The position numbers and the translations under genes were made by a program. A model generated the notes under the pieces. The model was not told the origin of the DNA. It saw only the letters and a program-made list of their open reading frames with translations, and made no database searches. Below are positions 348-3,976 of a stretch of 64,000 nt of DNA, one piece after another. Each line of letters begins with the position of its first letter. The first letter of the stretch is position 1. This stretch comes from Candidatus Gottesmanbacteria bacterium (GTDB lineage Bacteria > Patescibacteriota > Microgenomatia > UBA10105 > UBA927), in contig CAVQFA010000003.1 of assembly GCA_963711735.1 (NCBI GenBank), forward strand, positions 210,971-274,970, in the 5' to 3' direction.

Positions 348-459
348 AATACCAATGTAAAGGAATGCAATACGTTTGACAATTGGAAATATACAATGCT
401 GAATAATTGAGATTGGTGGCGTTATAAAATCATGATATAATTCGTTCGTTCATTGATAT

Positions 460-753
460 TCCCCTGTAGCTCAATGGTAGAGCGGCTTCCTGTCAAAATG
501 GCAGCGCTTAGCAGTAATGCTATGTGTAAAATCGGGCTAATTCGGGGAACTCCCGCACCAGACGGTGTAGGATTATCCCGAGCTAAATTCCGAAGCATGC
601 TGAGGATTAGTCCTGAGCAAAGCTGAAGGATAAATGTGTAGAGACTATATACCCGATCCGCCCTGGGCGGAATGAGATAGTCCGGACCATTCAGTAATGA
701 GTGGATTAACTGTAAGAAGAAGGTTGTAGGTTCGAATCCTACCGGGGGAGCCA
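460..753 (+). tRNA. tRNA-Asn (anticodon GUU) interrupted by a group I intron; exons ~460-493 and ~713-753 (CCA encoded)
   Basis: Cloverleaf read by hand. Acceptor stem tcccctg/cggggga (one G-U pair), D stem gctc/gagc, T arm gtagg-ttcgaat-cctac, variable loop aggtt. The anticodon loop reconstitutes as cu-GUU-aa only if ~219 nt between ctgt|...|taa are removed. The 5' exon resembles the E. coli tRNA-Asn 5' half. Confidence 0.7.
494..712 (+). ncRNA. group I self-splicing intron within tRNA-Asn anticodon loop (~219 nt, no ORF)
   Basis: The 5' exon ends in U, which pairs as U-G with an internal guide 'gcag' (~501-504) to form P1. The intron ends in omega-G (ctg|). It contains matches to the conserved group I R element (gtgtAGAGACUAtat, ~640-655) and S element (gAGAUAGUCCggacc, ~674-688) that form P7. 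Confidence 0.65.
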
Positions 754-801
754 TTTGGCACTTAGTATACCAAGTTTAGCCTCATTTAAAGATGAGAACT
801 T

Positions 802-1791
802 ATGATGAAAATTATTAAACCTACTAAACTTCAAAAAGGCGACACTGTAGGAGTTGTTGCAACCTCCTTTCCGTTCCCAAAAGACGAAACTAGCGATTAT
901 TTTCTCCAATATAAAAAAGGTGTTCGAGAATTGGAGAGTATGGGTTTTAAAGTTAAAGAAGGCAAGAATTTACGGAAATCAAAGTGGTGGTTTGCAGGTA
1001 CACCTGAAGAGAGAGCGTCAGACATCAACTTAATGTTTGCTGATCCTGAAATAAAAGCGATTATTGTTCATGACGGTGGGCAGTCTGCTATAGCGATATT
1101 AGAACACATTGATTATCAACTCGTTAAGGCAAATCCTAAACCATTCATTGGATTTAGCGATATAACAAATATTCACTGCGCCTTATTTACAAAAACGGGA
1201 TTAGTTGGATTCCATGGACCACTGTTAACTTATGGTTTAGGAAGGGTTTGGGAAAAATATCTACCTAATAAAATTAAGGAAGGAAAGGATCAACTTTTCA
1301 AAACACTTACCTCAAATGACATATTGGGAAAAATAAACCCACTTACTCAATGGGAATCTTGGAGAGATGGAACAGTTACGGGGCAACTTTTTGGTGGAAA
1401 TTTAAGCATGTTGTCTTCTTTGGTTGGCACTACATACTTTCCCAAGGTAGAAGATTTAAGAGGATCAGTATTGTTTTGGGAAACCGACAACACACCATCT
1501 TATCGTATTGAAAGAGGTTTGTATCAATTAAAATATGCAGGAATTTTGGATGTTATTTCAGGAATGCTGATTGGAAAATTGCCTGGAATTAAAAGAACGG
1601 CTTGGGAAGGATTAGAAGAACCAACGCCAAAGCAAATAGTTATGGAAATTTTGAAAAATTACAGTTTCCCGATATTAAGTGGGATTGATTTTGGTCACGA
1701 GACAGTTGATATCCCTATGCCAATTGGACTGGAAGCAAGAGTGGATTCAACGAATCTTAGTTTGGAAATATTAGAGTCTGCTGTTGTTTAA
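802..1791 (+). CDS. ldcA: LD-carboxypeptidase (peptidase S66, LdcA-like)
   Basis: 329 aa; GFSDITNIHCALF...HGPLL motif arrangement typical of S66 muramoyl-tetrapeptide carboxypeptidases. AT-rich codon usage. Confidence 0.65.
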   Translation: MMKIIKPTKLQKGDTVGVVATSFPFPKDETSDYFLQYKKGVRELESMGFKVKEGKNLRKSKWWFAGTPEERASDINLMFADPEIKAIIVHDGGQSAIAILEHIDYQLVKANPKPFIGFSDITNIHCALFTKTGLVGFHGPLLTYGLGRVWEKYLPNKIKEGKDQLFKTLTSNDILGKINPLTQWESWRDGTVTGQLFGGNLSMLSSLVGTTYFPKVEDLRGSVLFWETDNTPSYRIERGLYQLKYAGILDVISGMLIGKLPGIKRTAWEGLEEPTPKQIVMEILKNYSFPILSGIDFGHETVDIPMPIGLEARVDSTNLSLEILESAVV

Positions 1792-1957: not shown

Positions 1958-1992
1958 GACCGGTTGTAACAAGGCTATAGCGGTGATACCAT

Positions 1993-2304
1993 ATGAATAT
2001 GGATTCATATAGTTGTTGTACACCGGCGAAACAGGAATTTAATCATGTGACTTCGTTATCGTCACTTTTAAAGCTCGTGGGAGAGGCAAGTAGATTGAAA
2101 ATCCTCTGTATTCTTCGACAGGGCCAGCATTGTGTATGCGAAATAGAAAAACATGTTGACCAGTCACAAAGTTTAATCTCACATCACTTAAAGGATTTAA
2201 AAGGAGCAGAGCTGGTGATCGATGAAAAGAAGGGGTTGTGGGCTTACTATTCATTAACTGATAAAGGTAAAGAAATTACCGATATTTTGTTTCAAATCAA
2301 ATAA
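1993..2304 (+). CDS. arsR: ArsR/SmtB-family metalloregulatory transcriptional repressor
   Basis: 103 aa wHTH; LKILCILRQGQHCVCEIEKHV...SHHLKDLKGAELV; the Cys pair sits in the metal-sensing position. Confidence 0.7.
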   Translation: MNMDSYSCCTPAKQEFNHVTSLSSLLKLVGEASRLKILCILRQGQHCVCEIEKHVDQSQSLISHHLKDLKGAELVIDEKKGLWAYYSLTDKGKEITDILFQIK

Positions 2305-2307
2305 CGT

Positions 2308-2994
2308 ATGCAGAAATTATTAATAGAGTGGAAATACTTTGATAAAGGTGGTGTGACTTGTAAACGCTGCTCTCAGACCGGGAGCAACTTGGGTGATGTC
2401 ATAAAACAAGTCAAAAATGAGTACGCCTCAAAAGGAATTGAGATTGAGTATAAAGAAACCAAACTTCCCGAAAGTCGGATGTCAGAATCCAATCGGGTGA
2501 TTATTAACGGGAAGCTTCTTGAAAACTTAATTCCTGATGCTCAGGTTGGAGAAAACCATTGTGATTCCTGTTCAGATTTAATAGATGATCCATCAGGATG
2601 CAACTGCCGGACAGTCAAACTGGGCGACGATATATATGAAGCAATTCCCGCTGAACTTATACGTCAAGCTATTACTAATTCATTAAATACAGAACGGAAA
2701 ACTATGAATATCCAAGTCTTAGGTTCAGGTTGTGCAACATGCAAGAAGTTATATGAACTCACTCAAGAAGCGGTAAAACAACTCAAACTCGATGAGAAAG
2801 TGGAGTATATTACCGATGTTTCCAAGATTGTAGAAATGGGTGTAATGTCCAGTCCAGTTCTAGCTATTAATGGACAACCTGTAATGGTTGGATTCGTCCC
2901 TGATGTAGAAAAGATAAAGAGTCTTTTGACAACGGAAGCTAAAGCTCCTGAAGTTAAAAAATCAGAATGCAGCTGTGGAGGTGGTTGTTGCTAA
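2308..2994 (+). CDS. DUF2703-like N-domain fused to thioredoxin-fold 'redox-active disulfide protein 2' domain
   Basis: N-terminal CxxC (VTCKRCSQ) DUF2703-like region. C-terminal segment LGSGCATCKK...SSPVLAINGQPVMVG matches the small thioredoxin-like family often found in ars operons. Confidence 0.5.
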   Translation: MQKLLIEWKYFDKGGVTCKRCSQTGSNLGDVIKQVKNEYASKGIEIEYKETKLPESRMSESNRVIINGKLLENLIPDAQVGENHCDSCSDLIDDPSGCNCRTVKLGDDIYEAIPAELIRQAITNSLNTERKTMNIQVLGSGCATCKKLYELTQEAVKQLKLDEKVEYITDVSKIVEMGVMSSPVLAINGQPVMVGFVPDVEKIKSLLTTEAKAPEVKKSECSCGGGCC

Positions 2995-2995
2995 T

Positions 2996-3976
2996 ATGGA
3001 CATATTCTTTCCCGTTCAACAGCTCGCTGACCAAGTAACCTACGGATTACTTAATATAGATAAGACAAGCTACTTAGGGAGTGCGGTTAACTTCTTTATT
3101 TACGATTCAATCAAGATCGGAATATTGCTTGTCGTCATCAACTATGTGATGGCGATAACCCGATATTACTTTCCGATGGAGAAAGTCAGGGATTTGCTTA
3201 CGAAACGAAGATGGTTCGGTTTGGATTACCTGTTTGCCGCACTCCTCGGGGTTATCACGCCGTTTTGTTCCTGTTCTTCAATTCCCTTGTTTATCGGATT
3301 CCTGAGTGCCGGTATTCCTCTGGGGATAACATTCGCATTTCTTATCAGCTCACCGCTTATCAATGAATCATCACTTTTTCTGTTTCCGGCAATGTTCGGA
3401 ATGAAAATTACGATTCTCTACAATCTGGTGGGAATCGGCGTGAGCATCCTGGGTGGGATGTTGATTCAGCGATTAGGCATGGAAAAGTATGTTGAGTCGT
3501 CACTTTTGCAGTTTAAAAATAGACGGCAGATTATAGCAGAACAGGGTGGTAATGAACCGTTACTCAAAGAGCGATTAAAACTATGGTGGGAGGATGGAAT
3601 GGGTATTACTAAGAAAGTCTATCCATACGTTTTACTTGGTGTTGGTGTAGGAGCCATCATACATGGTTTTGTCCCGCAATCACTGATTGAACAATATCTC
3701 GGTATGCGTACCTGGTGGTCAGTGCCTGTTGCAACACTTCTGGGAGTGCCACTTTATGCTAATTCAGTGAGCGTTATCCCTGTCATGCAAGCCTTAGTCG
3801 GAAAAGGAGTGCCAATTGGAACCGCCCTGGCTTTTATGACGGCAACCGTAACTCTTTCTATTCCTGAAGCTCTTATTCTAAAAAAGGCGATGAAATTTCC
3901 ATTGATGCTAACATTTTTCGGAATAACGACTGTCGGAATCATGATAATGGGATATATATTTAATTGGATGTATTAA
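2996..3976 (+). CDS. arsP: DUF318/ArsP-family permease (putative organoarsenical efflux permease)
   Basis: Polytopic membrane protein with TPFCSCSSIP, the hallmark TPFcSCS motif of ArsP. The start is probably the ATG 1 nt after the upstream stop; the ORF track starts it at 2975. Confidence 0.6.
   Translation: MDIFFPVQQLADQVTYGLLNIDKTSYLGSAVNFFIYDSIKIGILLVVINYVMAITRYYFPMEKVRDLLTKRRWFGLDYLFAALLGVITPFCSCSSIPLFIGFLSAGIPLGITFAFLISSPLINESSLFLFPAMFGMKITILYNLVGIGVSILGGMLIQRLGMEKYVESSLLQFKNRRQIIAEQGGNEPLLKERLKLWWEDGMGITKKVYPYVLLGVGVGAIIHGFVPQSLIEQYLGMRTWWSVPVATLLGVPLYANSVSVIPVMQALVGKGVPIGTALAFMTATVTLSIPEALILKKAMKFPLMLTFFGITTVGIMIMGYIFNWMY

Follow-up and report, generated by a model that had tools for sequence, protein, structure and literature searches.

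We report, with high confidence, that positions 460-753 of the 64-kb stretch of contig CAVQFA010000003.1 analyzed here (positions 1-64000, hereafter the window) are a tRNA-Asn(GUU) gene of what appears to be a Microgenomates-like Patescibacteria bacterium, split between anticodon nucleotides U35 and U36 by a 219-nucleotide (nt) group I intron without an open reading frame (ORF). This combination of gene and insertion site is already known: it was listed in a 2020 catalogue, and its self-splicing was demonstrated for Patescibacteria in 2025-26. The split gene had been proposed in an earlier sequence-only reading of the window. We have now examined its exons, the fold of the intron, and the covariation of that fold among homologous introns.

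The exons form an intact tRNA-Asn

The two exons (Table 1) together specify a complete tRNA. Position 493 joined to position 713 gives a 75-nt RNA that ARAGORN identifies as tRNA-Asn(gtt), with a normal cloverleaf, a 7-nt anticodon loop (CUGUUAA), G73 and an encoded CCA. The cloverleaf that the sequence-only reading expected on removal of 219 nt is thus recovered. Divided by structural element, the 5' half, ending at 493, reads TCCCCTG-TA-GCTC-AATGGTA-GAGC-G-GCTTC-CTGT and the 3' half (713-753) reads TAA-GAAGA-AGGTT-GTAGG-TTCGAAT-CCTAC-CGGGGGA-G-CCA. The insertion point, U493|U713, lies between anticodon nucleotides U35 and U36 of tRNA-Asn(GUU), where it had first been placed.

To place the splice sites, every pair of boundaries having U at -1 and G as the last intron base was enumerated. 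A single pair yields a tRNA of normal length, and no G other than G712 restores an anticodon loop of 7 nt. Two other parses, one of 73 nt whose anticodon has 2 nt and one of 81 nt read as tRNA-Phe(aaa), were rejected, neither being of normal length.

The identity of the spliced tRNA was assessed against annotated phage tRNAs, which served as the intron-less comparison set because no intron-less tRNA-Asn is present in the reference set built from the 120 loci fetched for this work. The top full-length matches are all tRNA-Asn (79-83% identity across 100% of the query), and of the 25 best such matches 23 carry a tRNA-Asn label, the remaining two having no annotation. The U1-A72/G73 acceptor end is common to all 27 bacterial homologues. 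In the 27-sequence alignment described below, the four inner anticodon-stem pairs formed across the intron, from 28-42 to 31-39, covary and are paired throughout. Pairing at the outermost position, 27-43, is missing from 14 of the sequences, including the window copy (G485/A720), and all five pairs of the stem show compensatory changes.

Upstream of the gene, the sequence TGaTATAAT (Table 1) is a possible tRNA promoter of the extended -10 type. A consensus promoter scan omitted this element, which has a poor -35 hexamer, and instead returned a weaker candidate, TTGAGA-18-CATGAT, at 407-436.

The intervening sequence has a group I core

When the 401-nt segment 400-800 is searched with the Rfam Intron_gpI model (RF00028), the check that the sequence-only reading had proposed, it reaches 55.8 bits (gathering score 50, E = 1.1e-13), with a match that spans 479-704 and covers the full model (1-253 of 253). 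Intron_gpI is unreported in both Rfam scans of the whole window, run with gathering and with E-value thresholds, because of the speed filters applied; this is a filter effect and not evidence of absence. Other structured RNAs in the window could likewise escape whole-window Rfam scans. The folding energy of the intron corresponds to a z-score of -4.7, with none of 200 shuffled sequences folding as well, and a pattern running from P7 to the tRNA T arm has one match in the window and none in 100 shuffles of it.

All of the core helices from P1 to P9 can be drawn (Table 1), in keeping with the fold first suggested. The 5' splice site follows a U paired to the guide 'gcag' (U493.G501, with the guide at 501-504), as proposed, and this wobble pair is U.G in 27 of 27 aligned introns. 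The neighboring P1 extension pair 494/500 covaries (CG 12, AU 5, GC 5, UA 2). In the GNRA loop L2, neither G514 nor A517 varies, and conservation at A516 is at least 90%, as it is at G694, A696 and A697 in L9. The C583-G636 pair of P6 is CG in 17 and GC in 10 of the 27 introns, and the three distal P6 pairs covary too. The P6a/P6b extension has a close counterpart in a single other aligned intron (locus L005), and one more (L059) carries an insert of different sequence at the same place.

P7 forms from the two elements from which it had been predicted, R (AGAGACUA, 640-647) and S (AGAUAGUCC, 675-683). Tetrahymena binds its guanosine at the pair G264-C311, and by analogy C682-G643 would be the guanosine-binding pair here. 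The predicted terminal omega-G is G712, and in 27 of 27 introns a G at this place is followed by UAA. Two further pairings were considered and rejected: P10 as a determinant, since at most 2 base pairs can form and the positions vary in the family, and a pairing of tRNA position 31 with C505, since C505 is invariant whereas position 31 varies.

Table 1. Coordinates and supporting details of the split tRNA-Asn gene, its intron and associated features. Positions are those of the window unless a locus is given.
Feature	Position	Strand	Details	Source
Possible extended -10 promoter, TGaTATAAT	433..441 (TG 433-434, TATAAT 436-441)	+	~19 nt upstream of tRNA 5' end	Read from sequence
5' exon	460..493	+	Ends ...CCUGU; tRNA-Asn positions 1-35	ARAGORN on spliced sequence
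5' exon content	460..493	+	Acceptor 5' strand, D arm, anticodon stem 5' strand, loop C32 U33 G34 U35	
Group I intron, 219 nt	494..712	+	Ends ...AACUG; without endonuclease ORF	Rfam RF00028
P1 helix	490..504 (490-494/500-504)	+	C490-G504, U491-A503, G492-C502, U493.G501, C494-G500; loop A495-U499	
Internal guide sequence	G500-G504 ('gcag' = 501-504)	+	Pairs with C490 U491 G492 U493	
P2 hairpin	509..522 (509-513/518-522)	+	GNRA loop L2 G514 U515 A516 A517; 5/5 pairs change on both sides	
P3	531..536 with 652..657	+	Compensatory changes in 5/6 pairs; G536-C652 invariant	
P4	541-547/576-582 (within 541..582)	+	Both-side changes in 5/7 pairs	
J4/5	A548 A549	+	A549 invariant	
P5	551-553/570-572	+	Both-side changes in 2/3 pairs	
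Distal P5 extension hairpin	555-559/564-568	+		Minimum free energy fold only
P6	C583-G636 and 589-591/628-630 (within 583..636)	+	4/4 pairs covary	
P6a/P6b, lineage-specific extension	594-624	+	34-nt insertion relative to Rfam model	
J6/7 and P7 5' strand, 'R' element	640..648 (AGAGACUA = 640-647)	+	G641, bulged A642, G643-U648	
End of J8/7 and P7 3' strand, 'S' element AGAUAGUCC	675..683	+		Complementarity read from sequence
P7	643-648/677-682	+	6 base pairs, plus G641-C683 across bulged A642	
P8 hairpin	658..670 (658-662/666-670)	+	5/5 pairs change on both sides	
P9 hairpin	687..704 (687-693/698-704)	+	GNRA loop L9 G694 U695 A696 A697; 7/7 pairs change on both sides	
Omega-G, last intron base	712	+	Sets 3' splice site; G then UAA in 27/27	
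3' exon	713..753	+	Begins UAAGAAG...; tRNA-Asn positions 36-76	ARAGORN
3' exon content	713..753	+	U36 A37 A38, anticodon stem 3' strand, 5-nt variable loop, T arm, acceptor 3' strand, G73, CCA	
Spurious 110-amino-acid antisense ORF	422..754	-	Covers whole split tRNA gene	ORF listing
Adjacent LD-carboxypeptidase	802-1791		100% match to P0001	
L061 split tRNA-Asn gene	L061:64-644	-	Intron_gpI 97.2 bits	
L061 MCM helicase	L061:4805-6805		Archaeal MCM winged-helix domain; ~4 kb from intron on same 8.9-kb contig	

The fold is supported by covariation in homologous introns

Homologues were collected with the search pattern GAGACTA N15-45 ATAGTC N31-61 GGTTCRANTCC, made from the P7 strands and the tRNA T arm, which was scanned over one genome per species and matched at least 120 loci (given L numbers here). 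The window intron and 26 short tRNA-Asn introns were then aligned with plain MAFFT, the resulting 27-sequence alignment being fitted to no structure. When the 53 proposed pairs are placed on this alignment, 86.8% of cells are paired, compared with 65.2% for shuffled controls and 34-50% for controls in which the pairs were slid. The covariation score is 0.57, compared with 0.17 for shuffled controls (0 of 500 reach 0.57) and 0.09-0.18 for slid ones.

Compensatory changes occur in P2, P3, P4, P5, P6, P8, P9, the P1 extension pair and the anticodon stem. Within the P3-P8 core with its P3/P7 pseudoknot, P3, P4, P5, P6 and P8 covary above both the shuffled and the slid controls, and the strands of P7 are complementary. 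The lower pairing of P8 (70% of cells) arises because MAFFT aligns this length-variable hairpin poorly. The invariant elements of the alignment are CUGU, GCAG(C), the G and A of L2 (G...A), A549, AGAGACUA, AUAGUCC, and the omega-G followed by UAA.

Points against the assignment and alternative readings

Several observations weigh against our interpretation of the locus as a working, intron-split tRNA-Asn gene of a Patescibacteria bacterium. Splicing of the window copy itself is a prediction from its sequence. Whether this is the sole tRNA-Asn gene depends on the genome beyond the 64-kb window, within which ARAGORN gives no other tRNA at either intron setting. P10 is unsupported, with at most 2 base pairs possible (U713.G500 and A714-U499) at positions that are unconserved in the 27-sequence alignment. 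The invariance of P7 was imposed by the search pattern and so is not independent evidence; because that pattern fixed both P7 strands, the covariation of this helix is uninformative. The placement in Patescibacteria is indirect, being drawn from the names of homologues and from a set of loci biased towards that phylum.

A further difficulty concerns the intron subgroup. In the scheme of Michel and Westhof, the hallmark of subgroup IA is the presence of extra P7.1/P7.2 pairings beside P7 and P3. In the window intron the P7 5' strand is separated from the P3 3' strand by 3 nt, and P8 follows the latter directly, which leaves no room for P7.1/P7.2. The intron instead looks like a member of IC3 on account of its GNRA loops L2 and L9 and its J6/7-P7 sequence GUGUAGAGACUA, which we take to be the same as that of the Azoarcus intron. 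This appearance conflicts with the published assignment, by covariance models, of 25 of 28 introns at the 35/36 site to subgroup IA (PMC13011429).

The alternative that survives best, and that we nevertheless regard as quite unlikely, is that the locus is a decaying relic, a pseudogene with an intron that no longer splices, and that an intact tRNA-Asn gene lies elsewhere in the genome. The window is 64 kb of a contig of at least 567 kb, so a second copy is possible; P10 is weak; and both the expression and the splicing of the window copy are predicted properties. Decay is, however, difficult to reconcile with the state of the sequence. All of the core helices are intact, every family-invariant position is kept, the Rfam score exceeds the gathering cut-off, and the exons still form a normal cloverleaf with CCA.

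There is only a negligible chance that the boundaries are shifted by two bases, so that the gene is a tRNA-Thr(UGU) with its intron at 33/34. ARAGORN and tFind assign many genes of this kind to Thr(UGU) 33/34 (PMC13011429), and a brute-force parse also allows Thr(tgt) in several of the homologous loci. However, after the shift the last intron base would be C710 and not a G, which fails the filter for U at -1 and omega-G, and the base preceding the shifted intron, U491, pairs with A503 inside P1 and not with a G. The body of the tRNA matches annotated tRNA-Asn and has the U1-A72/G73 end common to bacterial tRNA-Asn exons, and the sequenced product of a homologue has the 35/36 junction (PMC13011429). 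We can likewise practically dismiss a tRNA-Asp(GUC) gene whose intron is 206 nt long and sits at the canonical 37/38 site, which is what ARAGORN -i returns for 460-753 (tRNA-Asp (gtc) i(37,206)), since it would put the 5' splice site after A496 rather than after a U paired to G, would give a mature RNA of 88 nt, ignores the P1 and omega-G that are invariant in 27 introns, and repeats an ARAGORN error that PMC13011429 (Table 1) lists for an Asn 35/36 gene that has been validated.

Relation to known tRNA introns

With the locus read as tRNA-Asn split at 35/36, the intron falls into a described class. Classical bacterial tRNA group I introns occur in cyanobacterial tRNA-Leu(UAA) at 34/35 and tRNA-fMet at 33/34, in tRNA-Arg(CCU) at 36/37 and in tRNA-Ile(CAU) of Azoarcus. 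The window intron resembles these in being compact and ORF-less, in its location in the anticodon loop, in forming P1 from anticodon-loop bases, and in having GNRA loops at both L2 and L9. The classical introns differ in that they occupy other host tRNAs and interrupt a different phosphodiester of the loop, and the window guide GCAG is specific for CUGU.

The tFind paper (Williams 2020, bioRxiv 10.1101/2020.01.27.920355) extends the known types of interrupted tRNA from 4 to 21, and it is there, on the account given by Nakagawa and colleagues, that tRNA-Asn(GUU) introns at 35/36 form the class 'Asn.4Ug'. Nakagawa, Amikura, Omae and Suzuki (bioRxiv 10.1101/2025.07.03.662931; mSystems 2026, PMC13011429) surveyed 4,934 complete bacterial genomes and identified 28 introns at 35/36, of which Patescibacteria account for 19. 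Group I introns interrupt 15 tRNA-Asn(GUU) and three tRNA-Asp(GUC) genes at this site in the 95 complete Patescibacteria genomes that they examined (PMC13011429). The opinion of the sequence-only reading that a tRNA-Asn(GUU) case was undescribed is therefore not upheld, and nor is its view of the insertion point as atypical: in Patescibacteria 35/36 is the typical site.

Precise self-splicing in vitro was demonstrated for one tRNA-Asn and one tRNA-Asp example, the tRNA-Asn coming from GCA_016700035.1; the spliced product of the homologue was sequenced, giving the 35/36 junction, and changing omega-G to C as a control blocked exon ligation (PMC13011429). The surveyed introns are 184-894 nt long (mean 257) and mostly lack endonuclease genes, with four tRNA-Asn introns encoding HNH enzymes, and standard tools miss these genes or mis-type them, including by the ARAGORN Asp(GUC) 37/38 error (PMC13011429).

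The window intron shares with the Asn.4Ug class of Nakagawa and colleagues the tRNA, the anticodon, the insertion point, U at -1, omega-G and the size class. It also resembles the class in lacking an endonuclease gene, as most members do, in being missed or mis-typed by tRNA finders, and, as far as can be discerned, in phylum. We see no essential difference; the window copy has the P6a/P6b extension at 594-624. The exact window sequence does not appear in the part of the PMC13011429 supplement that was searched.

Endonuclease ORFs and intron mobility

The P1 loop of the window intron is 5 nt long, and the intron lacks an ORF of its own; the claim that it encodes no homing endonuclease agrees with the ORF listing of the window. 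The intron is overlapped only by a 57-amino-acid frame, which begins upstream of the tRNA, crosses the 5' exon and enters the intron, and by antisense frames reaching beyond the intron.

Related introns are less reduced. Seven tRNA-Asn introns (loci L036, L038, L041, L061, L077, L107 and L112) have the same host tRNA, site and core sequence family as the window intron and differ in being ~500-560 nt long, compared with 219 nt, and in carrying an HNH-like ORF of 104-125 amino acids. In L036 the tRNA-Asn gene lies on the minus strand (split gene ~620 nt), and its 517-nt intron has a 124-amino-acid ORF that, read directly, starts in the P1 loop, continues through the guide sequence, P2 and P3-P5, and ends in the P6 region. 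The ORF of L061 was likewise read directly and also starts in the P1 loop. Introns at L099 and L015 hold shortened ORF remnants. The Pfam HNH profile is matched along its full length by three of the intron ORFs, with a score of 17 bits (cut-off 21.4), and this sub-cut-off match agrees with the HNH assignment of PMC13011429.

Since relatives carry an HNH-like ORF or its decayed remnants in tRNA-Asn introns, the sequences point to a homing history for the family, of which the window copy would be the ORF-less form, and the series of ORFs across loci suggests an endonuclease at various stages of acquisition and decay. The vertical stability ascribed to the window intron in the sequence-only reading is possible but was not established, given the HNH-like ORFs and remnants in the introns of its relatives. 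The neighborhood is not conserved: no tRNA lies beside the LD-carboxypeptidase homologue in any of three contexts, at 87%, 85% and 78% identity.

Distribution of related introns

Splice-site enumeration gives at least 31 other loci in which tRNA-Asn(GTT) has an intron of 180-423 nt at the same CTGT|TAA junction, and at least eight further tRNA-Asn genes have introns of ~500-560 nt; the scan of species genomes contains at least 39 complete tRNA-Asn examples. Among the matches listed, about 16 loci are tRNA-Asp(GTC) split at 35/36, and other loci have CAT, CCT or TCT anticodons with the same P7 pattern. In a further seven loci (L014, L033, L037, L070, L108, L118 and L119) a 5' half with a long variable arm ends in ...GACTGT and is followed by the intron, an arrangement consistent with tRNA-Tyr(GUA) split at 35/36 by a related intron. 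Judged by base pairing, a GCAG guide opposite CUGU would suit the Asn, Asp and Tyr tRNAs that have G34 U35.

The closest intron among the matches listed is that of L005 (78% over 327 nt), followed by those of L090 and L103. The closest tRNA-Asn exons among these matches are in two metagenome-assembled genomes (MAGs) of Gottesmanbacteria, L090 (96%) and L103 (90%). The proteins of the window, which has a G+C content of ~41%, match Patescibacteria contigs best among the fetched loci, a set biased towards Patescibacteria, and the closest genome in this set by protein similarity is that of L036 (52-72% identity over several genes).

tRNA-Asn introns at 35/36 are also found in MAGs labelled Omnitrophota (L001, L021, L035, L055 and L097), Limnocylindria (L060 and L096), Planctomycetia (L079), Gemmatimonadales (L104) and Gammaproteobacteria or Pseudomonadales (L018, L026, L028 and L106). 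The labels are the depositors' own, and several of these phyla fall outside those published for the 35/36 site, which in the complete-genome survey are Patescibacteria, Cyanobacteriota, Nitrospirota, Bacillota_A, Bipolaricaulota and Pseudomonadota (PMC13011429).

The same tRNA-Asn(GTT) 35/36 intron is present in contigs binned as DPANN archaea (Woesearchaeota, Pacearchaeota and Nanoarchaeota; L061, L004, L015 and L107), with the HNH-like ORF intact in L061 and L107 and shortened in L015. In archaea the usual tRNA intron is of the bulge-helix-bulge type. The exons of L061 look archaeal, with G1-C72 and CCA not encoded. One Pacearchaeota case was ascribed to mis-binning in the tFind paper (Williams 2020, bioRxiv 10.1101/2020.01.27.920355). 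The MCM helicase gene on the L061 contig (Table 1) argues against mis-binning there, although the contig may be a chimeric assembly. The portion of the literature on tRNA group I introns that was consulted contains no report of such an intron in an archaeal tRNA gene.

Annotation and genomic context

Run without its intron option, ARAGORN reports no tRNA in the window. With the option it reports this locus alone: the detection at 460-753 bears out the check suggested by the sequence-only reading, and the typing, tRNA-Asp(gtc) with a 206-nt intron at 37/38, does not. In public gene calls for the locus of P0001, the protein identical to the adjacent LD-carboxypeptidase, a minus-strand gene of 110 amino acids with no Pfam match is called 50 bases upstream of P0001. 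This called gene corresponds to the ORF at 422-754, so that the tRNA-Asn gene is probably annotated as a hypothetical protein.

Named homologues of the LD-carboxypeptidase, at 51-74% identity, all belong to the Patescibacteria group, Pacebacteria, Gottesmanbacteria, Dojkabacteria or Woesebacteria. Just downstream of this gene, positions 1990-3976 encode an HTH_5/HxlR-type regulator, a DUF2703-thioredoxin fusion and an ArsP-family permease, a cluster whose predicted products resemble an arsenic or redox-stress module.

Proposed splicing pathway

By analogy with the homologue known to self-splice precisely at 35/36, the window intron would follow the standard two-step group I pathway. The precursor would be transcribed, possibly from the TGaTATAAT element at 433-441, and the intron would fold into its P1-P9 core, with the L2 and L9 GNRA tetraloops probably clamping the compact fold. 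Free guanosine bound in P7 would attack after U493; G712 would then occupy the same site, and the 3'-OH of U493 would attack after G712. This would join U35 to U36 and restore the anticodon loop CUGUUAA, with end-processing yielding the 75-nt tRNA-Asn. The exons would probably be kept in register by the anticodon stem (486-489/716-719) and not by P10. In the Anabaena pre-tRNA intron, too, the anticodon stem reportedly holds the exons together.

Biological significance

If this is the sole tRNA-Asn gene of a reduced Patescibacteria genome, self-splicing would gate asparagine decoding, and the intron might act at the RNA level as a throttle on translation that responds to the pool of guanosine triphosphate. 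We consider this unlikely, and PMC13011429 raises the idea of splicing as a translation throttle purely as speculation. Were it true, a guanosine- and Mg2+-dependent splicing step would stand between transcription and all asparagine decoding, and the intron would not be a neutral passenger.

The significance of the finding lies mainly in annotation, in that the gene is missed or mis-typed by standard tools. A genome of this kind would score as lacking tRNA-Asn and so receive a lower completeness estimate. Biologically, the window intron is one more ORF-less member of a catalogued and experimentally validated class.

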